58,745 bases of DNA, taken from IMG/VR virus record IMGVR_UViG_2531839662_000025; one strand, 5' to 3'. The position numbers were made by a program, and so were the translations under genes. This DNA comes from a virus (lineage: Duplodnaviria; Heunggongvirae; Uroviricota; Caudoviricetes). Numbering within the stretch: position 1 is the first letter of the stretch; every line of letters begins with the position of its first letter. The notes below the pieces were generated by a model. That model did no database searches. It was not told where the DNA came from and saw nothing but the letters and a program-made list of their open reading frames with translations. Shown here in pieces: positions 1-28,207 of the stretch.

Positions 1-567
1 TTATTCCACTATAAAATTCCTAACCGAATTCAAATCCCCCAGACTGCTCAGTTCCTCTTTCAATTCACGCTGACGTTGATAAATCTCGTCATTGCGATCG
101 ACCTGAGCCTGCGCCATTGCAGTAAGCAGCTCATCCAGTTTCTGCATCGACAGTTTCACCTGCTGGTTTTCCGCATCGCCCCATACCATGGTTTTTCGCG
201 CTGTGTCAGACTTTGATGCCATTACTGCCGGATAAAGGCGGGCCAGTGAGTCGGGGCCAGCGTTCCAGGTGCGGCCGTTCCATTCGAACGTGAACGGCTG
301 CGCTTCCTGTTCTGTGCGCCATACCTCAATTTCTCGTTTTTTAGCGTCCTTTGCTGCTTCCAGCATTTCAGGCGTAACAGTGAACGGGGCGATTTCGCCC
401 CATTTGCCGCTTTTCAGTTCCTGCCAGATTTGCTGGCCTGTCGTCGCGGTGTCTTCTGGCGTGGCTGTGTACGGAAGCGGGTCTTCCATTCCTTCAAACA
501 GCACGTCGCAGTCAATCGCACCGGACTCGGTGTAGCGGGGACTGGTGATTTTTTTAATTTGCATCAT
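1..567 (-). CDS. tail fibre assembly chaperone (Tfa-like)
   Basis: 188-aa ORF immediately downstream of a tail-fibre gene (4-bp overlap); stop codon is the first 3 bases of the window. Confidence 0.7.
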   Translation of the reverse strand: MMQIKKITSPRYTESGAIDCDVLFEGMEDPLPYTATPEDTATTGQQIWQELKSGKWGEIAPFTVTPEMLEAAKDAKKREIEVWRTEQEAQPFTFEWNGRTWNAGPDSLARLYPAVMASKSDTARKTMVWGDAENQQVKLSMQKLDELLTAMAQAQVDRNDEIYQRQRELKEELSSLGDLNSVRNFIVE

Positions 568-2558
568 GAAACCCTCACAAACAAAGAAACCAGCCCCCGA
601 TTATAAAACGTGACATCCGGGCCTCCTGATAAAGCGAGATATGTGCCAGGCAGGGTACTTCCGTAGACAAATGACCTGGCAGCGGCACTAAATCCTGAAC
701 CGCGATACTCAGCTTCGAAGACCACCTGCCGGAGCCTTGATCCCGGCACAGGTTGCGTACGAAGTAATGTGACATCACTGCTGCCGCTATCTGGCAGGTA
801 TGCGGCAAGAACCAGGCTACCCGGTTGCGGAGCGCGCTGTGATGTAGTATCTCCTGCACATAACAGTTGTATCAGTCGGTCGCGTGACCAGAATAGCCGC
901 GACCATGCCCCGGGAAGTGTCGCCGAAGACATTGATTTTGTAACCAATACCTGATACTTAGCCGGCCCCTCACCAGTAGCGCCGCTGTATTCGGCATCGC
1001 CATGAAAAGTTATCCACCGGCCTGTTTCTGATTCAATACCGCCTGAACCAATTCCGCATCGTATTTCTATATCTACAAGCCCCCTGAAATAGGGTTGCCC
1101 CCCATCATAAGCAATGATGGGATTATATGAAATGCCACTCCCTCCATATTGTGTTACCGCGTAACGCCCGGGGGTGACTTCGAACACCCATTTCAGAAAT
1201 TCGGCAGGGCCATTTTTGGCGCTGAAATACACCACTTCCGACGAAGAGAACACATGCCCGTATCCGAACGCCCCCGGCAGCGCAACACGGCCTTCCGTGC
1301 TGTCGTAAAGGTCTGTCTGAATGTCCTTTACCGCTGCGCTTTTCAGCTCAAGCTCATTGCGCATGGCTTCCACTGTGGCCTGCGCCAGCAGTGACCGGGC
1401 TTTTTCTGACAGCGGAGACAGTGAAGCATTCCCGTCCTGATTAAAGCACAGAAGGTTATCTGCCCGTTCTTCCAGATTGCTGATTGCGGTTAACACGTCG
1501 CTGAGTGGTTGTTTACCCGCCAGCGCATTCATGATTGTTGTCGCAAAGTTCGGGTCATTACCCAGCGCCGCTGCCAGCTCATTCAGCGTGTCCAGGGCTT
1601 CCGGGGACGAGTCAACCAGCGCAGCAAGCAGTTTGCGGACAAACGCCACGTTCGCCATCTCCAGCCCGACGGCATCATCCGGTGGTGTTGGTGTGGTGGG
1701 CGTGCCGGTGAACGCCGGGCTGTCCAGCGGTGCTTTTGTTTTCGTCTCGTCCATGACGGTTTTGACAGCCTTTGGTGTGGCTGCCAGCTCTTCGCTGTCG
1801 TTGTCCGTATCACTACAGAGTTGCACCAGGCCTTTTTCTGTCGTGGAAGCATTGCTTCCCTTCAGGTCATCAACTATCCGTTGCGCCTCGTCCTTATGCT
1901 GTTTCGCGTTCTGCTCGCTTTTTGCTGCCGCTTCGGCGCTGGCTTTTGCCTCGCCGGTCAGCGTTGCAGCTTCACCGAGTTTATCGACCGCTTTCTTGAC
2001 TATCGTGTCGGCATCCTTGACGGCCTGCTCTGCGCGGGCGGCATCCTGTGTGGCAGATGATGCCAGCTGTGCCACCTGCTTTTTATCTTTGGCAACGGCT
2101 TCTGCATTCTGCTGTACGTTATCCGCCAGCGTCTCGCAGTCGCTCTTAATTTGTTGCGCATCAGCGACGTGTTGCCCGGCCTGTTGTTCGCTTTCCGCTG
2201 CCGCTTCCGCGCTCTGCTGCGCCTGCGCCACCATTTCCTCAAAGCGTTTCACCACGTCGGGTTTGAGGTCGCCTTCATCAAGGGCAGTCAGAAAGTCGTT
2301 CAGCGTACCGGGCCTGGAGTCGTCGTATACAGCAATGTCGCCAACACAGTACTCGTCGCGCCAGTCCTGCTTCAGATATACGCAATATTTTCCGGTTTGC
2401 GCCTTAAAACAGTACTCGCCACAGTTTCCTGTCACCACGTCGGCAACTGTGCGCATCACCACTTCTGAGGTGTTTACCCGGGATTTCAGAATTATGTGGC
2501 ATCCGGACATGGGGATGCCTGCGCCATCTATCAGCGCACCTGATATCACTACAGACAT
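564..2558 (-). CDS. side tail fibre protein
   Basis: 664-aa ORF with long Ala/Gln/Glu-rich coiled-coil stretch and C-terminal receptor-binding-like region, followed by a Tfa chaperone. Confidence 0.75.
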   Translation of the reverse strand: MSVVISGALIDGAGIPMSGCHIILKSRVNTSEVVMRTVADVVTGNCGEYCFKAQTGKYCVYLKQDWRDEYCVGDIAVYDDSRPGTLNDFLTALDEGDLKPDVVKRFEEMVAQAQQSAEAAAESEQQAGQHVADAQQIKSDCETLADNVQQNAEAVAKDKKQVAQLASSATQDAARAEQAVKDADTIVKKAVDKLGEAATLTGEAKASAEAAAKSEQNAKQHKDEAQRIVDDLKGSNASTTEKGLVQLCSDTDNDSEELAATPKAVKTVMDETKTKAPLDSPAFTGTPTTPTPPDDAVGLEMANVAFVRKLLAALVDSSPEALDTLNELAAALGNDPNFATTIMNALAGKQPLSDVLTAISNLEERADNLLCFNQDGNASLSPLSEKARSLLAQATVEAMRNELELKSAAVKDIQTDLYDSTEGRVALPGAFGYGHVFSSSEVVYFSAKNGPAEFLKWVFEVTPGRYAVTQYGGSGISYNPIIAYDGGQPYFRGLVDIEIRCGIGSGGIESETGRWITFHGDAEYSGATGEGPAKYQVLVTKSMSSATLPGAWSRLFWSRDRLIQLLCAGDTTSQRAPQPGSLVLAAYLPDSGSSDVTLLRTQPVPGSRLRQVVFEAEYRGSGFSAAARSFVYGSTLPGTYLALSGGPDVTFYNRGLVSLFVRVS

Positions 2559-2581
2559 AGTTTTTCTCGCGATAAATTAAA

Positions 2582-3127
2582 TCAGGAAGAGGCTTCCGGA
2601 GAGACGGGCCATTCAATGGCGTTATATGAGGTTTTATCAGTGATAATGTTGAAATCCATCGCCTGCAGCGATTTCGCGTAAATGCGGTACGCTTTCAGTT
2701 TCTCCCTGTCTTCGTCACTGATTAATCCCAGCAGCAGGTCTTTTTCCCATTCGCTGGTCATGATGCTGGCCTGTTTTAACAGTGCATCACGCTCATCTTC
2801 CGCTTTAAGTTTGTAGTCAAAAACAAATTCATCATTGCGGTAGAACCAGTAACCAGGCGCGGTAATACGGCGATTGGCGGTAATATCCGGAACTTCAATA
2901 ACACAGGCGTTACGGGGTTCAATGCCTGTCACATCCTTACCGACCCACACCACGCGCCCGTCCCCGGAGTAAACCATTTTTATTGTGTCACTGGCAAAGT
3001 TCTTCTGTTCTTCATACCAGTTTTTGCCGTCTTCCGAAAAAAGCCAGGTGACACCATATTGTTTTGTCAGTTGATATTGTTCCGCGGTTTTCGGATTACC
3101 CGCAGTAATATTTTTTAAATGTAACAT
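2582..3127 (-). CDS. tail fibre assembly chaperone (Tfa-like)
   Basis: 181-aa ORF directly after a tail-fibre gene; Tfa-like length and position. Confidence 0.7.
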   Translation of the reverse strand: MLHLKNITAGNPKTAEQYQLTKQYGVTWLFSEDGKNWYEEQKNFASDTIKMVYSGDGRVVWVGKDVTGIEPRNACVIEVPDITANRRITAPGYWFYRNDEFVFDYKLKAEDERDALLKQASIMTSEWEKDLLLGLISDEDREKLKAYRIYAKSLQAMDFNIITDKTSYNAIEWPVSPEASS

Positions 3128-3129
3128 TG

Positions 3130-4314
3130 TTAAACACTCGCCACGTTATACCAGGTGCCATTAATCAGTTTCTGAAGCGGACGGTAATACACGCCGCCGA
3201 TGTTATCTGCCGAATTACTTCCGGTTTCCTGCACATTAATACCGGATAACCCGTGGCCTGAAGGTGAGCGAAATGTCCAGGATACCTGGTTACCTCCCGG
3301 GTTGTAATACATTTCGGAACCATAACGCACATCCTGCACGCCGCCATTTCGCTGCTGATAGCGGGCATCAAAGTTTCCGTAGTTTGATGGAACCATCTGC
3401 CCGTTTACGGCAAACGTTATGCTGTTATCCGTATTCCTCTGACTGTAAAAATGCCAGCCAGAATCATCACCAAGCTCTGCAACAACAGGCCTTGAGGAAT
3501 TTCCCCATAGATTAAATCTTGCACTCTTCGTGGAAGAACTGTCACACGACAGCGTGAACTTTCTTAAATTGCCGGTCGAGAGATTTTCTAATGCCAGCAC
3601 ACCGTTTTTTGTAAAACGAAAGGCGTTGTGTCCCTCTGCAAACACATTAATAACACCGCGTCCGCCCCACTTAAAACCGGTATTGCTATCACAGAGCGTG
3701 AGTGATTTTTCACCCAGATTGTTCTCATTACCGATGCCAATCCTGTCACCAATAACCACATCGCCCTGGCGCAGGTTAATGGAAATGGGCCGCAGTGGGC
3801 CAATATCGCCATTCTCGCCCTGACCTTCACTGGTAGGGATAAGGTGCAGGCACTCTTCCGAGCGACGAAAAATCAGACCAAAGGCTTCGTTGAAAATCCT
3901 CAGCGCATTAACTCCACGGATTTTTAGTTCTCCGGTCATGGTGTCACCATCACGCTGAACGGCATTTTTTGCCTTATCCACCGTAGGTTTTAATCCGAGG
4001 TTTTCAACAGCCTCATCCTTATCTTCCACATCCGAAAGGTTATTTTTTATCAGCAATGCCTCTTCGTTAATCGCACCGCCCACCAGTAATAATATGGCTT
4101 TATATAGCTGATCGTGTTCTTCTTTATTCAGTTCTATCCCGGCTTTCTCAATGACACCACAGATTTCCTCCTGAATGGCATCCCACATGGCACTGTTCAG
4201 CCAGGTGGCAAGGCGTCCTGTGCGAAGATTTCCGTCAGTAAATCCGTTCTTGCCCGGGCCAAACTTATCTTTTACCGCTGTCAGCGTATCAATCCTGTGC
4301 ATCTTCATCCTCAT
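3130..4314 (-). CDS. tail fibre protein
   Basis: 394-aa ORF after the baseplate genes; conserved phage tail-fibre N-terminal region followed by Gly/Asn-rich distal part. Confidence 0.7.
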   Translation of the reverse strand: MRMKMHRIDTLTAVKDKFGPGKNGFTDGNLRTGRLATWLNSAMWDAIQEEICGVIEKAGIELNKEEHDQLYKAILLLVGGAINEEALLIKNNLSDVEDKDEAVENLGLKPTVDKAKNAVQRDGDTMTGELKIRGVNALRIFNEAFGLIFRRSEECLHLIPTSEGQGENGDIGPLRPISINLRQGDVVIGDRIGIGNENNLGEKSLTLCDSNTGFKWGGRGVINVFAEGHNAFRFTKNGVLALENLSTGNLRKFTLSCDSSSTKSARFNLWGNSSRPVVAELGDDSGWHFYSQRNTDNSITFAVNGQMVPSNYGNFDARYQQRNGGVQDVRYGSEMYYNPGGNQVSWTFRSPSGHGLSGINVQETGSNSADNIGGVYYRPLQKLINGTWYNVASV

Positions 4315-4879
4315 CTGGATAGGAAAATAAAACGACAGTATGTGACGGACATAATTTATTAATCACGCACTCCGCAACCGTATCCCCCCACGTCCGGATC
4401 GGTGTGTTGCAGGCGTCCGTGCATGTCTGCCACTGAGCACCGGCATCCACCGGCAACGTCACACGCCAGAAATAACGCCAGCGATCCCCCCATTCCGGAT
4501 CGGGGCTTGCATCCAGATTCTGGAACTGTTCGATCGTCACGCCGGTATATCCCAGCGCCTCAAGCTGATCCAGGAAAAACTGCTCATTTATGCCGCCAGC
4601 TACATTGGCTTTTGCTTCAAGACGTTGCTGGCGCTGGCGTAATGTCTGGGTTCCGACAGGAGAACAGGAATCAGGTAAACCATACAATTTTTCATAACGT
4701 TCAATCAGCTCTGTGGACTGACCGGGATCGATTTCAATCACCAGTTCATCAGCCCGCTGGTGAACACGCACAAGCGATGGAGCCAGACCGTCAAGTACAC
4801 CGTCGGTATCTGACCATGCAGGTCCCGGCGGCATCAGGCCATACAACAATTTTGTATAATCATCCTGTAACGTATCCAT
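4289..4879 (-). CDS. tail protein, Mu gp48/YmfQ-like
   Basis: 196-aa ORF between baseplate J-like gene and tail fibre, the Mu gp48 position. Confidence 0.6.
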   Translation of the reverse strand: MDTLQDDYTKLLYGLMPPGPAWSDTDGVLDGLAPSLVRVHQRADELVIEIDPGQSTELIERYEKLYGLPDSCSPVGTQTLRQRQQRLEAKANVAGGINEQFFLDQLEALGYTGVTIEQFQNLDASPDPEWGDRWRYFWRVTLPVDAGAQWQTCTDACNTPIRTWGDTVAECVINKLCPSHTVVLFSYPDEDEDAQD

Positions 4880-5961
4880 TATTTACTCCTTACCGGGTCA
4901 TAAGCCTGCCATGTGATCTCCCCGAGTACCGGAAGCTCAGTTTCCCCCAGGTCAATATCCGATGAAGGGTCGATGAGTCGATGGGCCACCTCGCCTGCAG
5001 ATAAACTGATAGCCTCGCTGATTCTGGACAGATACATGCGCCCTTCCGGCACACCATCCCGGAACATCAGCGCATTCAGTTCTGATTTTATTGCCGCCCT
5101 GATTTGCGGTGTGTCTTTCGATAACGCAATCGTCATCGGGATAACTTTTTCTGTGGCACCGAATACATACAATCCGCTTCCGGCAACAGGTGCCAGAGGA
5201 AGGATGTGGTCCCTGACTGCGTTAATCACGCTTTCATCCGGGGCCGGGTGTTCAGGATCGTTCGTCGCCACCATCACGCCAACCGTTCCAATACCTTTCC
5301 AGTGTCTGAAAGTCCATGCACGGTTAATACCCTGAACTTCTTTCGCCCAGATAACATAATCAGGATCTGCGCCCCCCTGTGGAATGTAGTAATAACGTTC
5401 CATAACGCGGGCACGCCATATTTCCAGATTTTCAATATCTTCACCGTCTGTAATGGTGTCAGCGTATCCTGTGGACGGCAGACCACTGACGGGTGTTCCC
5501 AGCTGCATGGCAATACCATCATCCGTATTCCCCGCCGATCCCGGTTCGTCTGCCACAACAGGCACCCGGAGAAGACCATCGGCTGCGGTCACCGTCGCCG
5601 TCGTGGTGAAGGTCACCTGATCATCACGCTGGATCTGCGTTCCCGCTGGCAATACCGGCGTCCCCTCTACGCCATCCCAGCGCACAAATCCCCGGGCTGC
5701 CACCGCATCTTTTCGCGGGCAGCGTTTGATTCTGGCGTGCCGGTACAACCAGTCTTCATCACACATGTCCGGCAACAGATTTCTGGCAAGATAATCGATA
5801 TACCCGTACAACGTGTGTACGGCTGCAGCCTGTACACGGGCATACACTTCCGCATCCATACGACGAAGCAGCGTATCCTGCTCAAAGCGGGTTAATAAAT
5901 CGCTCCGGATCATAGAAATAAGTTGCGGAAGGCCGGGGCGATAAAACTGACTGTCAGCCAT
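4879..5961 (-). CDS. baseplate J-like protein (Mu gp47-like)
   Basis: 360-aa ORF; size and position in Mu-like baseplate cluster. Confidence 0.7.
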   Translation of the reverse strand: MADSQFYRPGLPQLISMIRSDLLTRFEQDTLLRRMDAEVYARVQAAAVHTLYGYIDYLARNLLPDMCDEDWLYRHARIKRCPRKDAVAARGFVRWDGVEGTPVLPAGTQIQRDDQVTFTTTATVTAADGLLRVPVVADEPGSAGNTDDGIAMQLGTPVSGLPSTGYADTITDGEDIENLEIWRARVMERYYYIPQGGADPDYVIWAKEVQGINRAWTFRHWKGIGTVGVMVATNDPEHPAPDESVINAVRDHILPLAPVAGSGLYVFGATEKVIPMTIALSKDTPQIRAAIKSELNALMFRDGVPEGRMYLSRISEAISLSAGEVAHRLIDPSSDIDLGETELPVLGEITWQAYDPVRSK

Positions 5962-6367
5962 TCAGTTCACTCCAGATATCATCAAAAATAATGTTGTGAA
6001 TATTGCCGTCACGCTGGTAAATGGTAATGGCAAGTGCCAGCGAGTCTGTCCCGGTCCGGACAGCGTTAATATCAAGACGGGAAGCAACACCATCCTCCAC
6101 CATCCACGCCAGCGCCTCACGGGCATAATCTCTGGCAAGCTGCGGGGTTTTATTTGTCAGCTTGCTGCGTCGCAACAGATACAGACGCGACCCCGTGCGA
6201 TCATTCTGAACCGCAGGCCAGGTATCTCCCCACCATCCAAATATCTGCGGTGCATCATCATCACGCCCTGCACGCCGCCAGGTAAAAAGCGAAATAATCA
6301 CAGCACGCGTCAGAAGGTCGAGCGAAGCCCCGGTCGACACGGTTCGCCCGTTAACATTAATCATCAT
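5954..6367 (-). CDS. baseplate protein (Mu gp46 / GPW-like)
   Basis: 137-aa ORF overlapping baseplate J start; Mu-like order. Confidence 0.6.
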   Translation of the reverse strand: MMINVNGRTVSTGASLDLLTRAVIISLFTWRRAGRDDDAPQIFGWWGDTWPAVQNDRTGSRLYLLRRSKLTNKTPQLARDYAREALAWMVEDGVASRLDINAVRTGTDSLALAITIYQRDGNIHNIIFDDIWSELNG

Positions 6368-6372
6368 GATTT

Positions 6373-6906
6373 TCAGCCCATCGGTTGATCTGGCGTGTCA
6401 GTGATCCCACCACCATCACCATTTTCGGTGTGTTTGTGGGCATTGTAGGTCTGCCGCATTTGCTGCATGCTGAGTCCGCCACTGTCGCAATTGTCAGTAA
6501 TATCAGCGGTGGATTCGACAGGCATTTCAAAGCGCGCTTTAGGCGCGTTTTGAAAAATAATGGGCTTCCCGCCCCCGTTCACCACAATACCGGAACGAGT
6601 CAGGACAACGGATTGCCCCTGATCGTCATAAAGCGCCACTTCCCCACGTTTCAGTCCTTTCAACCGGTAACGTCTGTCAGCCACGACCACAACCACACCA
6701 TGAGAACGATCGCCCGCCGGGAATAAAGCAACGCCCTCAGCACCGTTCTGTGCAGCAGATGTAAAACCATAAGGCTCAAGGTGCTCAACGTGTTGTTTCT
6801 GATCTCCGGCTATCATTTTCAACCCTACAGACTGACACTTTCTGGCTGAATCCACCGCCGTGATGACAGCCCGGGAAATCAGATTGCGAAGAGAAAACCC
6901 GTTCAT
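6373..6906 (-). CDS. baseplate assembly protein V / spike (Mu gp45-like)
   Basis: 177-aa ORF in Mu-like baseplate cluster. Confidence 0.6.
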   Translation of the reverse strand: MNGFSLRNLISRAVITAVDSARKCQSVGLKMIAGDQKQHVEHLEPYGFTSAAQNGAEGVALFPAGDRSHGVVVVVADRRYRLKGLKRGEVALYDDQGQSVVLTRSGIVVNGGGKPIIFQNAPKARFEMPVESTADITDNCDSGGLSMQQMRQTYNAHKHTENGDGGGITDTPDQPMG

Positions 6907-7961
6907 CAGAAATCCTCCTCAACATTTTTTTTCTTCCTGCCGGTAACAGGCTCGGGGAGATAAGCATCTGCCGGGCCAACCCGTAATTCAGTCGTCGTGC
7001 CCCGGTCGTCCTGGTTATAGGTGACTTCTGCGATCACCAGTTCATCATTATCAAAATTATTCAGCGGGTCGAAAACGATGACAGATAACCCCGGACGCCA
7101 TAACGCGCCACTGCCCTGCCGCCAGCCCTGAACCGTATATGTTGTCTCACGGGTAAGCGCAGCCCGTTGACGCGCTTCAAATTCACAACGGGCCTTACAG
7201 GTTGCTGTCGTTGCTGTGCCTGACTGCTGAATCAACAAAGGGCGATAACGGGTCACACCACTGTCCTGAATGGTCTGACGTATTGCGGCAATGGTGGCCT
7301 CACCAAAATCATCATCGTTGCCCGGGCGCTGCCCACTGACCTGATATTCAGAAAACCGCTCTCTGATGCTTCTTTCCGTATCACAGGAAAGAATATTCTC
7401 TCCCAGCACCAGTGCTGTCGCCGCTTTGCCTGTTCCGGTTTTCCCCAGAACCAGTCGACCGCATTCATCGTCATAAGCCAGCGTCTGAACCTGCCCCAGC
7501 AACCGGTTAAGACAATCGGCAACGGTTTCGCCGTGTTCCGGCTGGGCATCAATCACCGCTGTCTGCGGCACACCGGCGTCAACAACGGTGATGCCAAATG
7601 GCGCAGCCAGTTCACTGACGATTCTGAGCAGGTTTTTTCCGCTCTGCTGGACTGGCAAAGCAGAGCAGTCAACCAGATCGGCTGTTTTGCTTCGCCCGAC
7701 AATTCCCATGCTGACGCTGCTGGCGTCATAACGAAGCGGTAGAGCCTCCACATATCCGGTGAGCACGGGCTCATCCCCGATAAGCACTTCAACCAGCTCA
7801 CCATTTTTTATCCGGGGCTGATAATCCCGGCTTCCGGGCCAGCGGGTGGTAATGGCAACATTAAAATCCCGGGCAATACGGTTAATGCCCGCACTGATTC
7901 GGACGGATGTCCAGCCGCCCCATTCGCGACCAGAAACCCGAAGTAAAACGGTATTATTCAT
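6906..7961 (-). CDS. tail protein, Mu P-like (gp44-like)
   Basis: 351-aa ORF between N-like gene and baseplate genes. Confidence 0.6.
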   Translation of the reverse strand: MNNTVLLRVSGREWGGWTSVRISAGINRIARDFNVAITTRWPGSRDYQPRIKNGELVEVLIGDEPVLTGYVEALPLRYDASSVSMGIVGRSKTADLVDCSALPVQQSGKNLLRIVSELAAPFGITVVDAGVPQTAVIDAQPEHGETVADCLNRLLGQVQTLAYDDECGRLVLGKTGTGKAATALVLGENILSCDTERSIRERFSEYQVSGQRPGNDDDFGEATIAAIRQTIQDSGVTRYRPLLIQQSGTATTATCKARCEFEARQRAALTRETTYTVQGWRQGSGALWRPGLSVIVFDPLNNFDNDELVIAEVTYNQDDRGTTTELRVGPADAYLPEPVTGRKKKNVEEDF

Positions 7962-9349
7962 CTGACGGGTACCCTTAATGCCCTGATCGGAACAAAGCCC
8001 GGATGGGAGATGGCATTTCGATCCAGGATATCAGTTTCACGGGACGCATCGTCGTACCATGACGCAGCCAGAACAAGCGCAGGAAGAACCTCCGCTGGCG
8101 TTCGCTCTGCGGTCTCCTCCGTCTGAACCAGACGGGCCTGAATATCCCGGTTCAGTTCTGTACGTAATGACGTCAGCTGAAAAAACAGCCTGTCATCCGC
8201 CGCACGCCTGAGCTCCTGTTCAATCGCCGCGTTCAGCGATTCGCGTATGATGGTGAGATTTTCCCGCGTGGGTGGTTGCGCGGTCTCATCCTGCTCTGTG
8301 CTGGCTGCCACGCTGTCAAGCGCCGGATGAGAAACATGAATGATATCGGACTGACGTTCAGTGGAACCACCAACAGCCACAACCGCCTGCTGATTTTTCA
8401 CCAGACTTCCGGGTTGCGGCAGTGAAGTGACCGCCCTTGCAGCCTCGCTGATTGCCGTCGTCCGGATGACTGCAGCCACCAGATTTGTCTGCTGTTTTTG
8501 CCTGACAACCGATGCGGAATCTGTGGGCCACACAGCACGCGGTGCCAGTCCTGGATCCAGCGTAATACCTGACATTGTCGTTATGGACTGCACCAGATCC
8601 TGTGTGTTACCCACCAGTCTGGTTCCTGCCCGCCAGGTATCCTGCAACGTATGCACAAAATCACTGGCAACCGACGGCGGCATCAGAATGACGGATAAAT
8701 CGCCCTGCAGTAGTCTCGCTCCGGCAGAAACAGCCGAATTAACCATTTTGAAAGCTGTCTGAACGGTTCCCAGCATATCGGTTGCCCGGGCAATAACATC
8801 GTTCTGAATAAAGTCCGATATTCCCGCGAGATCAAAATCGCCGAACATGTCTTCAATCAGCTCATCCAGGAATCCGGACGACTCCTCCAGTTTTCTGGCG
8901 GTTGCGGCTCCGGCGACCGGGAATGACAGTTCCCCGCTCTCAACAAACTGAAATGAAACCCGGCACATACGGCCTTCCGTGCTGGAATGAGAAACGGTCA
9001 CCTGTCCGTCAATACAACCCTGCATTTCACCGAACTGCGGATGGATCAGTGTCCCCGGCCCGGCGGTTTCAATCGCGGTAATCAGCCTGTCGCGCTGCTC
9101 TGCGTAATCATCACCAACGAGATACGCATTAATCGTCAGCCGTCGCGTGGCACGCCCGAGATCTTCCGTGTACGGTTTGTCACGGTTTGGGTATTCATGG
9201 ACCTGAACGCGGCGTCCGAACGAACCCTCGTCGCTTTCCACCGAAAACGGAACGCCACGAAATGAAGCATCGTAAAGATTATCGCGCCAATTGATACCTG
9301 AAGATGCAGAAAGGAGTGAAGAAAGAGAAGGTAAAGAAGGTAAGTCCAT
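7958..9349 (-). CDS. tail protein, Mu N-like DNA circularization protein (gp43-like)
   Basis: 463-aa ORF following tape measure in Mu-like order. Confidence 0.6.
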   Translation of the reverse strand: MDLPSLPSLSSLLSASSGINWRDNLYDASFRGVPFSVESDEGSFGRRVQVHEYPNRDKPYTEDLGRATRRLTINAYLVGDDYAEQRDRLITAIETAGPGTLIHPQFGEMQGCIDGQVTVSHSSTEGRMCRVSFQFVESGELSFPVAGAATARKLEESSGFLDELIEDMFGDFDLAGISDFIQNDVIARATDMLGTVQTAFKMVNSAVSAGARLLQGDLSVILMPPSVASDFVHTLQDTWRAGTRLVGNTQDLVQSITTMSGITLDPGLAPRAVWPTDSASVVRQKQQTNLVAAVIRTTAISEAARAVTSLPQPGSLVKNQQAVVAVGGSTERQSDIIHVSHPALDSVAASTEQDETAQPPTRENLTIIRESLNAAIEQELRRAADDRLFFQLTSLRTELNRDIQARLVQTEETAERTPAEVLPALVLAASWYDDASRETDILDRNAISHPGFVPIRALRVPVR

Positions 9350-9362
9350 ACTGTCTCCACTA

Positions 9363-9390
9363 TAAAAAAACCGCCAATTTCTGGCGGCTT
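9363..9390 (-). terminator. rho-independent terminator after lipoprotein moron
   Basis: Minus-strand hairpin (CCGCCA/TGGCGG stem) followed by U-run, directly downstream of the 9396-9878 gene. Confidence 0.55.
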
Positions 9391-9395
9391 ATATA

Positions 9396-9878
9396 TTAAT
9401 CATCACTAATATCTTTCATATTCAATTTGCAATTTTCGTAGGTCACTCCAGACTCGCCATTAACATTAACTCCAGCTCTGATATTCCCGTTTTCTTTTAC
9501 ATCTACAAAAAACTGGCCTCTTGGCATCTTGAACACAAATGTAAAACCAACGGTATCTGAATCAAAATCATCATCTTTATATATTGGGATCAGATGTGTC
9601 ATCGTCGCTGGTGATGCATTGTTTGCAAAATCAAATACACCTATACTTTTGCCGAATTCATAAGAAGCTTTTCTCAATATAATCGCACCGCTGGCAGAAG
9701 GGGATGGGCACGATATCCTCAGTTGTCTGAATCCATCTGTATCCAAGTCAACATCATTATATGCAGATGCTTTAACGTTATTAACAAATCGTGAAGCAAT
9801 CTCCGCATTTGTTAGTGTTTTCGCCTGAGCACAGCAAGAGGTTAATATTGCAACTGTCATTAAAAATGGCTTTATCAC
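9396..9878 (-). CDS. predicted secreted lipoprotein (moron in tail module)
   Basis: 160-aa ORF with N-terminal signal peptide and lipobox (LTSC); AT-rich relative to flanking tail genes; own terminator. Confidence 0.6.
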   Translation of the reverse strand: MIKPFLMTVAILTSCCAQAKTLTNAEIASRFVNNVKASAYNDVDLDTDGFRQLRISCPSPSASGAIILRKASYEFGKSIGVFDFANNASPATMTHLIPIYKDDDFDSDTVGFTFVFKMPRGQFFVDVKENGNIRAGVNVNGESGVTYENCKLNMKDISDD

Positions 9879-9945
9879 AAAACAAACTCCATTGTTAGCA
9901 TGTTACGCGATAATTTTGCCTCATCTCTCACCACAAAAAAAGAAT

Positions 9946-11895
9946 TCACCTTTTAAATGGAGAATACCCAACGTCATGGGTGATTTTCATAAAGGGATCG
10001 CCTGTTTTCGGCAAATCGATGACACGCATTCCCGGCGGCGCGTTGTCAAACGTCACCTTAAGTTCGCTGCGGGTTGCCGGTGACGATGAAAGGCTTAACA
10101 GTTGATTCCTTTCCAGTGATACATTCGGGATGTAGCGTTTATCTGGAGATAAATACCCATCACCACGTGGCATCTGCCATCCGGTCATGTCATAGACAAA
10201 ATCATGGAACTGTTTGCCCCACTCGTCGAACTTATCATTCAGACCAAATCCACTATTCAGTGCATCAGCCACAAAATTTTTAACAAGCCAGGGATGTTCT
10301 TTTTCAAACTCCTGCGCCATCATGCCCAGTTCAAGCAATCCACCAATCAGACTGATCTTACCAAGCCCCTTTAATTTCAGCGCCGTTTTTCCTGCCGCCG
10401 TTGTCCATTGATTCTGGGCGACTGTTGCTGCACGAATGGCTGCCACCGCTTTCACACCAATATACAGGGCAGAAACCGTTGCTATTGTTTTTACTGCCTG
10501 TTCCCATCCCCCCATTGCCCTGACAACCTGATCAACCTCCTGCCAGACTTTTTTCACAACCGGCCCGACCGTTTCCCAGTTGTCAATAATGAGATACGCC
10601 CCCGCTACCAGTAACGTAATGAGTCCCTTTGCCGGTGTCATATTCATCACGCTACCCATGATTTTTGTTATGCGTGTCAATGTGCCAATCGCCACGCCCA
10701 TCGTCAGTAATGCCGCACCAGTTTTCGCGATGGTTTTTACGACATCAGGATTTTCTCTGACAAACGTGCGCACTTCTTCCAGAAAAGGCTTCATCTCTTT
10801 TATGCCTTCATTGATTGAAGGCAGGAAGGTTTCCCCCAACGTGGAAGAAATCGCATTGATCTGGTTCTGCAGCAGCAACAACTGATTTTCCGTCGTCGCG
10901 GCACGGGCGGCATATTCTTTCTGCATTGAGCCGCCATACTGCTGCGCATCCGCCACACGATTAAAATTGGTTCGCAACAAATCCAGATTCGTGAGCAGCG
11001 GCGCAATGGCTCCCAGAGACTCCTTCCCGAACAGCGCATTAAGCACAGCAGCCTGTTTTTCTTTCGGCACTTTCGCCAGAGAATCCAGTACGTGCAGCAT
11101 GGCCCCACGGGCGTCTTTCTGCATATCCGCCGCCAGTTTTTTCGGGTCAATGCGCAACAGGCGAAGCGCTTTTTTCTGCGATTTGGTGGCAGAATTCCCC
11201 GCAGTCAGCGACAGCATAAAATTCTTTATCCCCGTCGCAGCAATTTCTGATTCCACCCCCATTCCGGCAATGGTTGCCCCCATTGCGGCAATCTCTCCGG
11301 AGGCCACACCCGCAACACTGCCTAAAGGGCCAATACGGGTCACAACATCAGAAATCTTTTTCGCACTCGCAGGACCGGTATTACCAAGATAGTTAATCTT
11401 GTCCGCAAGCCCTGCCACCTCTCCCTGTGTCAGTTTAAAGGCAGTGCGCCACTGTGCCATCATCTGACCGGATTCTTCCGCCGTGGTGTCAAAGGCCACC
11501 CCCATCTTCACGGCGTCGTCAGTAAACTGCATCAGCTCGTCACGGGCGATGCCAGCCTGACCACCCGCCGCCACGATTTCGGCGATACCTTCCGCCGACA
11601 TGGGCAGTTCTGTTGACAGGTCGCGCACCTGTTCCGTCATTGCCTTAAACGCTTCCGGCGTATCCAGACCATCCACCACTTTCCGGACATCCGCCATTTT
11701 TGATTCAAGGGCAATGGCAGATTTGACCGGGAGCGCCAGCGCCCCCAGTACTGCGGTTCCGGCACCCGCTGCGCCCAGTGACAGGCTGGCAAACTCCTTT
11801 TTAAAACCTTTCAGCTGGCGCTGCATTCCCTTCAGCGGTGCCGATACCTTATCCACGGCAGTGATGATCGCCTTCAGCTGAAAACTGTCAGCCAT
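9946..11895 (-). CDS. tail tape measure protein
   Basis: 649-aa Ala/Gly-rich ORF between tail chaperone and N-like gene. Confidence 0.8.
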   Translation of the reverse strand: MADSFQLKAIITAVDKVSAPLKGMQRQLKGFKKEFASLSLGAAGAGTAVLGALALPVKSAIALESKMADVRKVVDGLDTPEAFKAMTEQVRDLSTELPMSAEGIAEIVAAGGQAGIARDELMQFTDDAVKMGVAFDTTAEESGQMMAQWRTAFKLTQGEVAGLADKINYLGNTGPASAKKISDVVTRIGPLGSVAGVASGEIAAMGATIAGMGVESEIAATGIKNFMLSLTAGNSATKSQKKALRLLRIDPKKLAADMQKDARGAMLHVLDSLAKVPKEKQAAVLNALFGKESLGAIAPLLTNLDLLRTNFNRVADAQQYGGSMQKEYAARAATTENQLLLLQNQINAISSTLGETFLPSINEGIKEMKPFLEEVRTFVRENPDVVKTIAKTGAALLTMGVAIGTLTRITKIMGSVMNMTPAKGLITLLVAGAYLIIDNWETVGPVVKKVWQEVDQVVRAMGGWEQAVKTIATVSALYIGVKAVAAIRAATVAQNQWTTAAGKTALKLKGLGKISLIGGLLELGMMAQEFEKEHPWLVKNFVADALNSGFGLNDKFDEWGKQFHDFVYDMTGWQMPRGDGYLSPDKRYIPNVSLERNQLLSLSSSPATRSELKVTFDNAPPGMRVIDLPKTGDPFMKITHDVGYSPFKR

Positions 11896-11979
11896 GCTTC
11901 ATCTCCTCGTTAATGCGGACGGCCTCGGCTTCCAGTTCTGTAAACTGCGAAATAGCCACCCGTCGCAGCTCCAGTGGAT

Positions 11980-12309
11980 TCAGTTTCCAGAACCAGGCAA
12001 CATTGTAGAGTCGTTTCCGGAGGTGCTTCCCGTCTCCGACTGGGTAAAAAAACGCAGGATCTGCATGCTGGTCTTAAAAATATCCAGTTTTGCCATCTGC
12101 GCCGCCGATGAACGCGGGATCCCCGCCAGCAGCGGGATATATTTCAGTGCCACCTGGCTGTCCAGTTTTATACTGCCCTCACCGGAAATAATGAAAGGAA
12201 AACCCAGGGCCTCGATTTCGTCATACGTGGGTTCACGCAACTCCAGCACATGCAGCGTTTCGTTATGCGCTGTCACCGGTTTTTTTAAAACAATTTCTGT
12301 CACGCTCAT
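11980..12309 (-). CDS. tail assembly chaperone (Mu gp41-like)
   Basis: 109-aa ORF between tail tube and tape measure. Confidence 0.5.
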   Translation of the reverse strand: MSVTEIVLKKPVTAHNETLHVLELREPTYDEIEALGFPFIISGEGSIKLDSQVALKYIPLLAGIPRSSAAQMAKLDIFKTSMQILRFFTQSETGSTSGNDSTMLPGSGN

Positions 12310-12665
12310 TACTGATATCCTCCCTCTTCGCCGTGAAATTCAAGATCTGCCGTACCTTCTTCGGCATTATGGTTTGCTTCGCCATGCAGCCAGGCCGCCG
12401 AAAGCACATACACCATGCCGTTTGCCAGCTCGGCAGTAATCGTCATCTGGTCTGAGGTGGTAATTTTGTCGACCGGAAAATTTTTGGGCACTTTAAACGT
12501 GCCCTTAACGTAAGGTGACCGCCAGGTCTCCTTGTAATCCACATCACCAGCCATGCCGACGACATCATCCCGGACATTGGTGTTCATCGGCACTTCAATG
12601 CCACCTGTCAGCGATAACTGCTGACCATCCACTTTAAAAAAACAGGTTCCGGCGATCTTTGCCAT
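12309..12665 (-). CDS. tail tube protein
   Basis: 118-aa ORF immediately after sheath gene. Confidence 0.7.
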   Translation of the reverse strand: MAKIAGTCFFKVDGQQLSLTGGIEVPMNTNVRDDVVGMAGDVDYKETWRSPYVKGTFKVPKNFPVDKITTSDQMTITAELANGMVYVLSAAWLHGEANHNAEEGTADLEFHGEEGGYQ

Positions 12666-14161
12666 TATGCTGACTCCTCTGAATACTGGAGACGGAACTG
12701 GTTAACCACCGCAAAGACACGTAACTGGTTAACATAATCCGGCGGGAACAGCGTGTTCAGTCGGTTCGGGTTATCCGCATCACGTTCAACTATCAGATAC
12801 TGTTTAAACAGATCGTAATTTTCCACAATACCGGCACGCTCCATCTGACGATATGTCGCCAGAAGCTCCCCTTTGATAACGGCAGGAGTAACAATCGCCT
12901 GCCCAGGACCAAAACGGGTACCATCATTTGCCAGCTTGTGGCGTCCGTACTTGCTTGTGATGACCGATTTCAGTTTGCGAAGAACATATGCGCTGGTATG
13001 CAGTGTTTCACTGTCCAGATAGCTGTTGTCTGCCACGCCATATGCATTCTTTTTGTATGTGGTTACGGAACGCTGGATCCGCAACGTGCCGCCTTCCACA
13101 TAAGCCGTCGCCACGCCGTGAGATAAAAGGGTCTGCTGCTCTGTCATGATGAATCGCTTACCTTTCGGTGCCGGAAGCATCCCCACCAGTTCCCCCGTCT
13201 GTGTCGGACGGGCCGGATCATTGCGGATAAATACCGCTTCACGGGCAAGGCGACTGGCAACCAGTTCATCGACAGGCGACTGGGTTTCTTTTTCGTAACC
13301 GGCAAGCGTGATATGTTGCTGATTATGCATATCTCCGGCATCAACCAGCTCTGACAGCGTTCCCAGTTTTGCGGTATAGACATGCCCGTATAACTGGCGC
13401 GCATAACTCCAGCGACCGCTGCTGTCATTCATTTCGGTCATCATCATATTGATGGAGGCGGCATCGTTGAACGGCAGACCGATAAAGTCGAATGCCTCAT
13501 CGCCCATAGCAGCAACAGCGGCAGTAAGATCAGGCGCGCCACTACCCGCAGTTCCGGCTTCCGTCACAACCTGAAGCCCCGCAGGCAGAATCTCACCACC
13601 ACCAGAACCATAATAATTCAGGCAGACAGGCAACTCGTTACCATACAGCCCCTTATGGCGGGCAGTCAGCGTCACCACACCTGCATCAGATGACGCCGCA
13701 AACGGCAGGGTGATAACCCCGTTTACCGCTTCCTTAATCGCGGTGGCAACCGCAGTAGCATCATCGCCATTCACCACAGGCACCTGTACACGGTAGCGCC
13801 CGACATACAGACTCAGGGTGCCGCTTTCCTCTGCTTCTCCGGTAACTGTCACCCTGACCGTCGCCGCCGCCCCTTTGGCTTCCGGTACTGCAATAACATA
13901 CAGTTCACCGAAAGGATCTGTCTGACGGTAGACGTCAACCATACGCGCCAGCTGGCTCCCGGCCCCACAAATCTGACGGGCATAATCTGCCGACGGCATC
14001 AGCACCAGGCTGTTAACCTCAATGGCGGCATCGTTGCTGGCATGCCCGATCAATAATGCAGGCGCGCTGGTCACTGCTGTATTTGCCGCAGAATTGTCCA
14101 TCTCGGCGTAAAACAACGGCACCAGCGTATTCGACGGAACAGCACTAAAACTTATTGTCAT
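12665..14161 (-). CDS. contractile tail sheath protein
   Basis: 498-aa ORF; Mu L-like sheath size and position. Confidence 0.85.
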   Translation of the reverse strand: MTISFSAVPSNTLVPLFYAEMDNSAANTAVTSAPALLIGHASNDAAIEVNSLVLMPSADYARQICGAGSQLARMVDVYRQTDPFGELYVIAVPEAKGAAATVRVTVTGEAEESGTLSLYVGRYRVQVPVVNGDDATAVATAIKEAVNGVITLPFAASSDAGVVTLTARHKGLYGNELPVCLNYYGSGGGEILPAGLQVVTEAGTAGSGAPDLTAAVAAMGDEAFDFIGLPFNDAASINMMMTEMNDSSGRWSYARQLYGHVYTAKLGTLSELVDAGDMHNQQHITLAGYEKETQSPVDELVASRLAREAVFIRNDPARPTQTGELVGMLPAPKGKRFIMTEQQTLLSHGVATAYVEGGTLRIQRSVTTYKKNAYGVADNSYLDSETLHTSAYVLRKLKSVITSKYGRHKLANDGTRFGPGQAIVTPAVIKGELLATYRQMERAGIVENYDLFKQYLIVERDADNPNRLNTLFPPDYVNQLRVFAVVNQFRLQYSEESA

Positions 14162-19564: not shown

Positions 19565-20290
19565 TTAAAGCGAGCGAATACCAACGCTGACCAGATGCTC
19601 AGACAGATCCGGCTCCGGTTCACCGCCATTGACCAGCATCCGGCTCATTGCTGTAAACATCGCAACAGGACCGTCGATTTTGGCTTCCGGCGTGGATTTA
19701 TTCGGGAAGATATTGTTGTTTTTGTCCGGTTTCACCGTAACGTTAGACATCATCCAGTTCATGACCGGGTGATTGCTGTGGTGGAAACGTCCGGCATAGA
19801 CCAGTGATTCCGTTTCCTTCATGGCCTCTGACAGATTGCGGACCGTCTGCGGAACTTCCACCAGCGGTATACCTTCTTCAGCCAGCGCCAGACTGAACTG
19901 CATTGCGCTCCACGGGTCAAATCCCAGTTCCCTGAGGTTTTCACCGCCAATCCATTCCAGTAAGTCACTTTTTATCTGAGCATGATCGATAACATCACCA
20001 TCCGTCAGGATGAGCTTATCCATCTCCGCCCACTTCCGGTAAAGTTCTGCCTGCTGCCGCGAGCATCGCTCCAGCCGTCCTTCCGGAAGCCAGAATTTAA
20101 AATCAGCATGAACATGTCCGTTATCGGTTCGCCAGAGTTTTGCCGCCGCACAGATATCAATCTTATGAGCAAGGTCGACGCCGACCCACATGGGATATGT
20201 TTTCAGCTCATGTTGTGGAGCAATGTATTCGCACTTCTCCCACTTAATCATATCCATCCAGGCAGATTCGGCAGTGACCCACACATTCAT
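19565..20290 (-). pseudogene. terminase large subunit, C-terminal (nuclease) fragment of the host prophage
   Basis: 241-aa ORF aligns by eye with the C-terminal third of the intact TerL at 20817-22478; N-terminal two thirds lie 15 kb away at 35283-36303. Confidence 0.8.
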
Positions 20291-20293
20291 GTG

Positions 20294-20309
20294 TTTGGTA
20301 AGAATATTT
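20294..20309. repeat. putative att core (left junction of satellite)
   Basis: TTGGTAAGAATATTTC; imperfect direct repeat of TTGGTAAAAAAATTC at 35276-35290, located at the terL break point. Confidence 0.5.
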
Positions 20310-20376
20310 CAAGTTTTTTAAAATCACCTGTATATCAATCATTTAACATGAAAAAACAGTCTTTATAAATCATCGA

Positions 20377-20397
20377 GCAATACACAGCGCAATACAC
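20377..20397. repeat. arm-type repeat GCAATACACAGCGCAATACAC
   Basis: Near-identical tandem motif also at 35125-35145 just inside the other satellite end. Confidence 0.5.
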
Positions 20398-20582
20398 GTA
20401 TCTGTATTGTTTTAATGCTGATACACACCGTTTTTTGATACAGTGATTCGACCTACCATCGCGAAGCATTTTTTATTTCTTGTGTGTAACAATCTGACGA
20501 GGTGAGCACTCAAAGAGATAAGAGGCAGTAGAAATTTCGATCCCCCCTGAATGCAATTTTTCGTATATATATACAAAACAGT

Positions 20583-20741
20583 GCGGGTTATGCGGGTTAG
20601 CGGGTTATCTTCGCGTGCTAAGTATTTTTTACTCTTTAATATCAATACGTTAAAAAACAACGTATCTAAATATCAGCCAGAATGTAACCCGCAAGACATT
20701 CAAAATAACCCGCAAACACCACTCAAATAACCCGCAAAAAC
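20583..20741. repeat. iteron cluster (GCGGGTTAT motif), three direct plus three inverted copies around an AT-rich spacer
   Basis: Direct copies at 20584, 20593, 20602; inverted copies at 20686, 20706, 20728. Confidence 0.7.
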
Positions 20742-20816
20742 ATCCCTGAAAGTGGGTGCCGATAATACTGAAAATTTATTCCATTAAATGAGCATTATCC
20801 TCTCTCATCCATTCCG

Positions 20817-22478
20817 TTACACACCATCAAACGTCGCAAGCCGCTCTTTGTGGCTGTCGCTCATATCGAATGCAAATTCCTCATGCTCTGCCTGGAATGT
20901 GCCAAACGCCATCAGCGCCGCAACGCTCGGGTCTATCTTGTTGGATGATTTTTTCTTGTTCGGCTTGATATTGGCGTTCGCGTCACTCTGCATCACAACA
21001 TTACTCATTGACCAGGCCAGCACCGGATCACCACGATGCACAATCACCTTCCGGTTAACAAAAACTTCGAACGATTTCGCCGCCGGACTGAAACGAAGGT
21101 ACGTTTGCGGGAACGGCTCCACCTCAAATCCTGCGCCCTGTAGCTGCGTCCTCAGGTGCGTGGCGTTCCATGTATCGAAACCCACCAGCCTGATATTGAA
21201 ATTCTCTGCATCCGCCATGATGTCATCACGGATACGGTCATAATCAATGCAGTCACCCGGTGTTGTGCGTATCCAGCCCGCCTTTACCCACTGGCGATAG
21301 ATGGCGCGGTTTTTATTGGCGGGGTTCTGTAGCTGAAATTCCGGCAGATAGTGACGGGAAACCAGCATAATCTTTTTACCGACCGGAAAGGCATAGCACA
21401 CGCTGGAAATATCGCTGGTTGATGATAAGTCCAGCCCCGCGTAGCACTCCTGCCCGTATAAATCCGCCTCCGCGAACGTTCCGGCGCACTCCGCCCATGC
21501 ACCGTTACCCATCCACGGCGTGGCCCCCTGACACCAGATATTGAATCGCTTGGTGAGCATTTCCACCCACTGCGACGGAATACCCCGCGCTTTCTGGATG
21601 GTTGAGGCCAGTTTTTCACGATCGACGGAAACATCGATATTGGGATTCGCCTTTATCCACATCGCCGGATCGTCAACCTCGCTTTCATCATCCAGCTCGT
21701 AAATCAGCACGAACATGGATTCGTTCACCTCTTCACCATCCAGTATCTGGCAGCAATAGTCGTAGTGTTGTTTACAGGCTGAAACAACGTTGCTCCCCGA
21801 TGTGGTGATGGCAAATAATAACCCCTCCGGACGCGCCCCCATTCCCAGTTCAAGCGCGGAATAAACCCCGTTGTCAGGGTGCAGGTGATATTCATCCACA
21901 ATGGCAAGACTCGGGTTTGTACCTTCAATGGTTGCCGCTTTTGCTGCCAGTGGCTTTAACAGGCTGTTGGTTTTCGGGTGTATCACCTTGTGTGCCTGAA
22001 TATTTACCCGCTTTCGCAACGGTCGGGATAAAAGGCACATCTGACGCGCATCATCAAACACGATCCGCGCCTGATCACGACTCACGGCGGCGGTGTAAAT
22101 ATCCTGCTGCCCGTTTTCCATAACCAGAAACCAGTTAGCCAGGATAGCGGCGACCGTGGATTTGGCATTTTTTCGCGGCACTTCAATGAATGCGCTGGTG
22201 TATTTGCGCCGTCCGGTGGCCTTAACCTTAAAGCCCAGGATGCACGCAAAGGCGAACTGCTGCCACGGCTCCAGCTCAATGGGGCTACCGCGCATTGCGC
22301 CTTTTACGTGCGGACACACCCTGGAAAAGGCAATAAACCGCTCCACGACCTCCGGATCGAACGTGTAAAGGGGGTTTTCAAGGTCAGAAAAATACCGTTT
22401 AACGGCCTGTTTCAGTCGTTTACAGGCCGTAATTTTGCCGTTTTTTACGCCTTCTGCGTACTCATGCCAGGCGGTCAA
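20817..22478 (-). CDS. terminase large subunit (satellite-encoded, intact)
   Basis: 553-aa ORF with ATPase and nuclease halves. Confidence 0.85.
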   Translation of the reverse strand: MTAWHEYAEGVKNGKITACKRLKQAVKRYFSDLENPLYTFDPEVVERFIAFSRVCPHVKGAMRGSPIELEPWQQFAFACILGFKVKATGRRKYTSAFIEVPRKNAKSTVAAILANWFLVMENGQQDIYTAAVSRDQARIVFDDARQMCLLSRPLRKRVNIQAHKVIHPKTNSLLKPLAAKAATIEGTNPSLAIVDEYHLHPDNGVYSALELGMGARPEGLLFAITTSGSNVVSACKQHYDYCCQILDGEEVNESMFVLIYELDDESEVDDPAMWIKANPNIDVSVDREKLASTIQKARGIPSQWVEMLTKRFNIWCQGATPWMGNGAWAECAGTFAEADLYGQECYAGLDLSSTSDISSVCYAFPVGKKIMLVSRHYLPEFQLQNPANKNRAIYRQWVKAGWIRTTPGDCIDYDRIRDDIMADAENFNIRLVGFDTWNATHLRTQLQGAGFEVEPFPQTYLRFSPAAKSFEVFVNRKVIVHRGDPVLAWSMSNVVMQSDANANIKPNKKKSSNKIDPSVAALMAFGTFQAEHEEFAFDMSDSHKERLATFDGV

Positions 22479-22818: not shown

Positions 22819-23106
22819 GTTCTTTTTTCGCCCAATTATTTTCAAAAAAAATCCCGTGCACAAAAATTTGAGGAGGCGGTCGGTGTCCGGCAGGGACGGT
22901 TTCGTCCTGAAAACCTCCCCCACCCCCTCTGACAGCCTCACCAGCGATTGCGAAAACATTCCATGACCTCGCGGTCACGGTCGGTTAATCGCTTCGCTGT
23001 GGTGCGTTCTGTGCGCCCTGTCCTGTTAGCTTTGTGCCCTGTCTCCTGTGTCTTCCATAAGTCACGCTGCCTTATCAGTCCACGTATCAGCCTGTTTTGC
23101 TCCTGT

Positions 23107-25053: not shown

Positions 25054-25054
25054 A

Positions 25055-25615: not shown

Positions 25616-25664
25616 CGGTGTACTCCATAAAGCTGAAAAAGGAGGCCGAAGCCCCCTTTGCTCA

Positions 25665-27578: not shown

Positions 27579-27580
27579 AA

Positions 27581-28204: not shown

Positions 28205-28207
28205 TGC

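Follow-up and report, generated by a model that had tools for sequence, protein, structure and literature searches.

Two tail fibre genes, each followed by a gene for a putative chaperone, stand in tandem at the left end of a viral DNA record of 58,745 nucleotides (nt) (IMG/VR record IMGVR_UViG_2531839662_000025, Caudoviricetes; hereafter the window, meaning this whole stretch at its full length), and the question they raise is whether they are alternative fibre sets governed by an inversion switch or two fibre systems made side by side. The left part of the window belongs to a phiP27-like temperate Escherichia coli myovirus prophage, of which it forms the tail end, and our data make it highly probable that this prophage encodes two distinct, co-expressed and functional fibre systems without a switch. 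The locus is more sharply described as the combination, in one prophage, of a Mu-type baseplate fibre and a lambda-type collar-anchored fibre than as an inversion switch in disguise.

The original prediction of tandem fibre/chaperone pairs in a single orientation was borne out, since the four open reading frames (ORFs) were recovered on the minus strand with the coordinates and lengths first assigned to them. In total, positions 1-4879 hold five genes back to back, all on the minus strand. The first to be read encodes a Mu gp48/YmfQ-like baseplate wedge protein (4289..4879; Pfam Phage_Mu_Gp48, expectation value (E) 2e-25; tblastn with Mu gp48, E 8e-12); this last baseplate gene extends over the start of the next. 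Fibre 1 (3130..4314, 394 amino acids (aa)) is a Mu S-type baseplate tail fibre (PHROG 6859 'tail fiber', E 3e-179; PDB 5yvq), and chaperone 1 (2582..3127, 181 aa) is a Tfa/Mu U-type tail fibre assembly protein (Pfam Caudo_TAP, PF02413, E 9e-23; PHROG 136, E 3e-59). The second pair is formed by fibre 2 (564..2558, 664 aa), a lambda Stf-type side fibre (Pfam PF08400 and PF03406; PHROG 2636, E 1e-212), and by a DUF4376 protein of 188 aa (1..567; Pfam DUF4376, E 1e-15, residues 71-174; PHROG 1141, E 1e-86), whose gene closes the late operon and ends with a stop codon occupying positions 1-3 of the window. The Pfam and PHROG E-values of the four ORFs are far beyond chance. Mu-type baseplate genes lie upstream of the gp48-like gene (Pfam Baseplate_J, E 2e-53), and the near-identical copies carried by the porcine enterotoxigenic E. 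coli (ETEC) UMNF18 are annotated with genes for the tape measure, tube, sheath and a Mu-type baseplate, pointing to a contractile tail. One of these copies, a prophage in yecE, is 99.8% identical to window positions 1-12,901, and the other, beside tRNA-Ser/hyaA, is 98.1% identical to positions 31-9,353.

Describing the pairs as two sets was correct insofar as both exist, but their fibres and chaperones belong to different families, and they are not alternative versions of each other. Likewise, a Tfa had been expected after each fibre, which holds for the first pair (Caudo_TAP) and not for the second, where the downstream gene matched only DUF4376 in Pfam, with no Caudo_TAP match. Pair 1 belongs to the Mu S/U type: a Mu S homologue directly follows the homologues of the baseplate wedge genes gp47 and gp48, a Caudo_TAP gene comes next, and chaperone 1 is 40% and 47% identical to Mu U and U', respectively. 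As for the DUF4376 protein, a sequence search of the PDB returned nothing even at E 1; it has a C-terminal DUF4376 domain, and its gene directly follows a fibre gene. DUF4376 proteins have been reported as tail fibre chaperones in the Alteromonas phages V22 (gp26/gp27) and A5 (gp8/gp9) (PMC7289586; PMC10579305), and this protein is probably the chaperone of fibre 2.

The homology of fibre 1 and chaperone 1 to Mu S and U, which are part of the invertible G system of Mu, would suit phase-variable alternative fibres, with an invertase encoded outside the pairs flipping or exchanging the second one, as in Mu G, P1 C and e14 P. The original prediction had in fact allowed for an invertase just left of the window, and had named an invertase with crossover sites around the second pair as a finding that would overturn it. 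Neither could be found. Mu Gin, S, U, U' and S' were used as tblastn queries against the whole window, and the best Gin match had E 0.94 (E 1e-131 in the control on Mu itself); no Gin/Hin-type recombinase is annotated in either UMNF18 copy or in their flanks. No gix-like 26-mer was present at up to 7 mismatches from the 26-bp query taken from the Mu record, and a repeat scan of positions 1-6000 gave no long flanking inverted repeat, the best arms being of 33 nt with 76% complementarity, which is chance quality. Directly beyond the last gene lie host genes or attachment sites: a truncated yecE, yecD and aspS in one UMNF18 copy, tRNA-Ser and hyaA in the other, attR in phiP27, and an att site with uspF in Rac-SA53. 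Thus, both hallmarks of an invertible system, a serine invertase and inverted crossover sites flanking an oppositely oriented set, are missing here; instead, the pairs are co-oriented, and fibre 2 has a complete N-terminus of its own and is not a swappable C-terminal segment. We rejected a phase-variable switch as far as sequence can tell, and consider it extremely unlikely.

The four genes and their upstream neighbour are tightly packed, with, in order, a 14-26 nt overlap (gp48-like gene/fibre 1), a 2-nt gap, a 23-nt gap and a 4-nt ATGA overlap, and promoter-like and terminator-like sites in positions 1-6500 were at or below the shuffled expectation. The ratio of nonsynonymous to synonymous substitution rates (dN/dS) was calculated against phiP27, pPE4 (deposited as an Actinobacillus phage) and Rac-SA53, the last two of which share the same four-gene layout. 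Values were 0.20-0.37 for fibre 1, 0.17-0.22 for chaperone 1, 0.15-0.23 for fibre 2 and 0.10-0.15 for the DUF4376 gene; all four genes are under purifying selection, and both pairs are intact. Furthermore, the receptor-binding ends of fibres 1 and 2 are mutually unrelated. Joint expression of both sets with dual receptor specificity, as originally proposed, would accordingly survive as the natural reading, because the genes are co-oriented with tight junctions, lack an excess of promoters or terminators, are under selection and carry unrelated tips; co-expression of both pairs is the likely state on these grounds. The possibility that either pair is a pseudogene was rejected on the intact ORFs and dN/dS values, and a separate promoter for pair 2 was rejected because every lineage leaves a gap of just 23-25 nt between the pair and the gene before it.

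All sampled lineages have a terminator-like hairpin after the DUF4376 gene, where late transcription probably ends. Loci of the phiP27 and Rac-SA53 types have a conserved GC-rich hairpin (CCGCGGCACGT...ACGTACCGCGG) directly after the DUF4376 stop codon; this hairpin lies just left of window position 1 (locus L004, ~7,920-8,000), with equivalents in loci L001, L002, L003 and L013. Classic stem-plus-T-run terminators take its place in loci with a P2-like tail.

The ATG at 4302 is the probable start codon of fibre 1 (390 aa), since a GAGGA motif lies 8 nt upstream, the Prokaryotic Genome Annotation Pipeline (PGAP) chose this codon and the PHROG alignment begins at residue 5. The protein matches the Mu tail fibre S (PDB 5yvq) at E 1e-24 in the stretches 34-101, 84-134 and 126-393, and the alignment runs over the whole length, from the N-terminal part to INGTWYNVAS at the C-terminus. 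Three regions could be delimited: a predicted lineage-specific baseplate adaptor (residues 1-118), based on a mosaic junction and on the comparison of loci; a conserved shaft segment of 66 residues (121-186) from the GDTMTG motif, with conservation of 0.90-0.98 in seven loci; and a Mu S-like receptor-binding end (residues ~190-394; PDB 5yvq), closing with INGTWYNVAS. The mosaic junction is at window position 3939 (GDTMTG, fibre 1 residue ~125), exactly where homology to pPE4 and Rac-SA53 begins. Because that homology starts only there, fibre 1 would fit each baseplate by swapping an N-terminal adaptor of ~120 residues, whereas fibre 2 is transferred with its anchoring domain unaltered.

Fibre 2 begins with a collar domain that would anchor it (residues 1-93, positions 2280..2558). 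Pfam assigns its N-terminus to phage_tail_N (PF08400, E 9e-62, a full-length match over residues 1-134), the collar domain typical of lambda Stf-type fibres, and residues 1-93 share 45% identity with the same residues (1-93) of Ur-lambda Stf (PDB 9e7m/9mgh, E 6.5e-17), while residues 1-193 match gp40, the 'collar spike' at the neck of phage XM1 (PDB 7kjk, E 7.9e-10). After the collar comes a short linker, DEGDLKPD (residues 94-101). To judge from the sequence and the published lambda domain map, an Ala/Gln/Glu-rich stretch would occupy the position of the lambda proximal coiled coil, and a Phage_fiber_2 repeat lies at residues 238-277 (PF03406, E 3e-16).

The C-terminal receptor-binding region of fibre 2 (residues ~409-664, positions 567-1334) was delimited by its recurrence: the last 256 residues are found again, at 80-94% identity, on E. 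coli fibres ~430 aa long whose N-terminus is a PF12571 tail-collar domain, of the type that Pfam finds on P2 H-like fibres. Since the same region occurs on fibres of this other type, it is predicted to be a modular binding tip, and fibre 2 a receptor binder. Beyond the PF12571 group, the relatives of the tip that were found are only 29-30% identical and belong to the Escherichia phages Av-05, 19-1-2 and vB_EcoM_TH18. Some records misname fragments of this region 'shikimate transporter'. Comparison of the fibre C-termini with known receptor-binding domains, which the original prediction had suggested, succeeded for fibre 1, whose end is Mu S-like, and failed for fibre 2: Foldseek against the PDB gave no match at E <= 0.001 with an AlphaFold2 monomer model that is itself weak (15-sequence alignment, mean pLDDT, the predicted local distance difference test, 61.6).

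Two fibre/chaperone pairs at the end of such a tail operon are in themselves an ordinary arrangement, already known, present since phiP27 and carried by more than 100 E. coli genomes. What is mildly new here, together with the question of anchoring, is the portability of the second pair, which on comparative grounds behaves as an autonomous cassette carried at the operon end of at least four unrelated contractile-tail lineages. Pair 2 follows Tfa1 in phiP27-type and Rac-SA53-type prophages and in one P2-variant prophage, where the preceding genes are a PGAP 'tail protein I' gene and a Tfa gene; among the sampled E. coli genomes, it was found in another Rac-SA53-type prophage as well. A further prophage lineage, whose tail is P2-like, has it after gene D and at a distance of 6-9 kb from the H/G pair. 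This lineage lies beside ompW in two of three strains, with a block of sheath, tube and tape-measure genes between pair 2 and H/G (L010 4310-6360 with L014 54-1828; L011 3485-6360; L016 1624-4778 and 10756-12728), and its H-type fibre in ETEC1718 and SC407 keeps the conserved shaft segment of fibre 1. The first 100 residues of fibre 2 are 100%, 99% and 96% identical in phiP27, pPE4 and Rac-SA53, respectively, and the collar is 74-97% identical in the additional E. coli settings. To judge from pPE4, whose other virion proteins do not resemble those of the window, the collar is indifferent to the kind of tail that it serves. Moreover, the collar has a bimodal distribution among 50,697 phage records: its identity reaches 95% or more in 4, all of them these myophages, and stays below 60% in 302, mostly lambdoid siphophages. 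It occurs in ~143 of 5,426 complete E. coli genomes, 453 of which match parts of the module.

The same comparisons bear on whether pair 2 is a functional part of these virions, or cargo left by recombination with lambdoid prophages and not assembled on contractile tails. For the latter speak the position of the pair at the extreme end of the prophage by the attachment site, where accessory genes gather, the fact that fibre 2 is of a type typical of lambdoid siphophages, and the match (83%) of part of fibre 2 and the DUF4376 gene to the lambdoid stf region SerU-LTIIb. Decayed copies also exist. In E. coli AST20 (locus L018, 10,682-14,582), a phiP27-type copy at tRNA-Ser has a truncated YmfQ gene, a deleted fibre 2 gene and a 129-nt 3' remnant of the DUF4376 gene, and the second pair can therefore evidently be lost. 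However, dN/dS in pair 2 is 0.10-0.23 over 188-664 codons against the three relatives, every locus sampled in four tail lineages retains intact ORFs, with the pair always 23-25 nt after the preceding late gene, the collar is the best conserved part of fibre 2, and among phage records this collar clade is highly similar only in contractile-tail phages. We regard cargo or a remnant as very unlikely.

Accepting two working fibre systems, the best explanation of the whole, to which we give slightly less than an even chance, is that both are made together without a switch and that fibre 2 is ringed at the neck. Fibre 1 trimers would sit on the six baseplate wedges via their lineage-specific adaptor, like Mu S. 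Fibre 2 trimers would be anchored separately by their collar domains, with the short linker leading to the shaft; these domains would form a ring around the tail axis, the neck being the accessible place in a sheathed tail. Two receptor-binding specificities would thus be displayed at two heights on the virion, and the initial, reversible contact could fall to fibre 2, as it falls to the side fibres in Ur-lambda. In Ur-lambda, 12 Stf collar domains ring the gpV/gpM junction, three per trimer in 4 trimeric fibres, with linkers of ~10 residues (PMC12617516); in XM1, 18 N-terminal domains of gp40, from 6 trimeric spikes, bind head-completion and tail-terminator proteins at the neck (PMC10457771). 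The neck is favoured here because the junction used in lambda would be buried under the sheath and because the only solved homologue from a myophage is at the neck; nevertheless, neck-ring anchoring taken by itself is a tentative proposal, somewhat less probable than an even chance.

Several observations weigh against this explanation. The proposed neck anchoring draws only on the two structural precedents and on the argument of the buried junction. Moreover, the collar domain contacts tail or neck proteins in XM1 and lambda (PMC10457771; PMC12617516), and here the collar is nearly invariant across phages with unrelated tail and neck proteins, which is awkward for specific docking at the neck and would fit a branched fibre better. 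In addition, the prophage of the window looks packaging-defective because its terL gene is split by a satellite, and 'expressed together' may describe the phage family only.

In a branched fibre, the collar of fibre 2 would dock on the fibre 1 shaft (residues ~121-186) or at the edge of the baseplate, a second receptor-binding arm would be added to every baseplate fibre, and the apparatus could move between tails by swapping the ~120-residue adaptor alone. Across six other loci from at least four tail lineages, the shaft segment is 86-95% and the collar 74-100% identical, the fibre 1 adaptor just 6-25% (98% in phiP27, of the same lineage) and the receptor-binding end 34-98%. A segment of at least 86% and a collar of at least 95% identity were found in exactly the same 4 of the 50,697 phage records, and the two occur, as separate counts, in 144 and 143 complete E. 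coli genomes. Both co-occur in the P2-like-tail lineage although its fibre genes are 6-9 kb apart, and pPE4, on which our literature search found no publication, has no other virion protein in common with the window (no similarity to the window structural proteins at E 0.01 or better). Furthermore, this 'contractile-tail' collar clade is only ~45% identical to lambdoid Stf, suggesting a different partner. On the other hand, the two features are 1-2 kb apart in most loci, where linkage alone explains their co-distribution equally well, as would conserved recombination flanks around a variable cassette of receptor-binding end and Tfa; the unlinked cases amount to one prophage lineage (n = 1). 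Both solved collar homologues ring the tail axis and no fibre. The segment also occurs apart from the collar: Muvirus vB_YpM_23 has it at 79% in an inverted layout of the G-segment type and has no Stf-type fibre, and EC42405 has it with a second fibre bearing a PF12571 N-terminus in place of the collar. We consider a branched fibre, the main rival to the neck ring, rather unlikely. It is likewise a doubtful, though conceivable, idea that the collar needs no lineage-specific partner at all, making fibre 2 a plug-in second binder held either in a neck ring or as a clamp on the co-travelling 66-residue segment.

As found, the arrangement matters little, having been in the databases since phiP27. 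Were the anchoring of fibre 2 established, it would account for the acquisition of a second receptor specificity by temperate coliphages through a single recombination event, and it could guide the retargeting of myovirus or tailocin particles. If the plug-in idea were true, it would represent a new anchoring mode for the collar domain and a handle for host-range engineering that requires no adaptation between contractile tails.

Other elements of this prophage deserve mention. An element of ~15 kb on the minus strand (window ~20,300-35,250) splits the prophage terL into an N part (35110-36303) and a C part (19565-20290). It carries a tyrosine integrase gene (33881-35140) and a gene for a DUF927 protein (28844-30964), as well as genes for an HK97-type capsid protein, an S78 protease, a portal, TerS and TerL, and no tail genes; no direct repeat of at least 14 nt was found flanking it. 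The element looks like a capsid-forming satellite of the phage-inducible chromosomal island (PICI) type that could borrow the tail of the prophage. The window copy, whose tail module is intact, may not make particles of its own. An IS66-family insertion sequence, IS679 (tnpA, tnpB and transposase; window ~47,400-50,100), interrupts a DUF977 gene of the early region, a call based on the PGAP annotation of the 99.5%-identical UMNF18 copy and on matching ORFs (47472-49043 and 49411-50061). Positions 40,271-40,424, upstream of the lysis genes, hold a pair of tRNA genes, tRNA-Gly(tcc) and tRNA-Thr(tgt).

Relative to the RefSeq UMNF18 genome, the window is a composite: its left 12.9 kb corresponds to the yecE prophage and the remainder to the tRNA-Ser-adjacent prophage, which matches positions 11,204-58,745 at 99.5-99.7%. 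Either the window stems from another assembly or strain, or near-identical tail modules were recombined or collapsed in assembly. The yecE sister prophage of UMNF18, which is phiP27-like, also carries, outside the window, an ompC-like porin gene (locus L005, 15,728-16,810) between DNA methyltransferase and antiterminator Q genes. OmpC is the receptor used by lambda Stf (PMC12617516), and a role of such a prophage porin in superinfection is pure speculation.

The closest named phage is the Shiga toxin 2e (Stx2e) phage phiP27 (NC_003356, genes L52-L57), whose genome, with the same arrangement, was reportedly sequenced by Recktenwald and Schmidt in 2002. Its order is the same throughout: baseplate J, gp48-like protein, fibre, Tfa, PF08400 fibre, DUF4376 protein and attR. 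This collinearity is accompanied by high identity of the baseplate and anchor parts (gp47 100%, gp48 (L53) 99%, fibre 1 residues 5-118 98%, collar 100%) and of the DUF4376 protein (89%), placing the window in the phiP27-type tail-end module. The receptor-binding ends differ, fibre 1 being 61% identical overall and 34% over residues 191-394, and the phiP27 fibre 2 (490 aa) lacks ~175 residues of the shaft found here. In contrast to phiP27, no stx region was seen in the window prophage, which has the inserted satellite and the insertion sequence.

In Mu, S and U likewise stand directly after gp48 and are homologous to fibre 1 and chaperone 1. However, Mu holds S'/U' inverted, sharing the N-terminus of S, with 34-bp gix repeats and beside gin, none of which applies here; the second fibre of the window is an entire protein from a different family. 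The Alteromonas phages V22 and A5 also have a DUF4376 gene right after a fibre gene, although they have only the domain family in common with the window, their fibres being unrelated.

With Ur-lambda Stf, fibre 2 shares the collar, a linker at the same position and the Phage_fiber_2 repeat; no match to the receptor-binding end of lambda Stf was found. The chaperone of lambda Stf is Tfa (Caudo_TAP), as opposed to the DUF4376 protein here, and lambda is a siphophage in which the collar rings an exposed tube/tip junction, whereas the window phage is sheathed. The conservation of Stf in myophages was already noted in the Ur-lambda work, and lambda Stf is an accessory adsorption fibre beside another binder (PMC12617516), as proposed for fibre 2. 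The Vibrio myophage XM1 shares the contractile-tail context and has two sets of binders, baseplate spikes (gp18) and gp40 at the neck; the N-terminal domain of gp40 (residues 1-126) has its homologue in fibre 2. The sequence relation is distant, XM1 carries tailspikes and not fibres, and the neck attachment demonstrated there is inferred here. Virions with two fibre systems are indeed commonplace, as illustrated by lambda with Stf and gpJ (PMC12617516) and by XM1 itself (PMC10457771).

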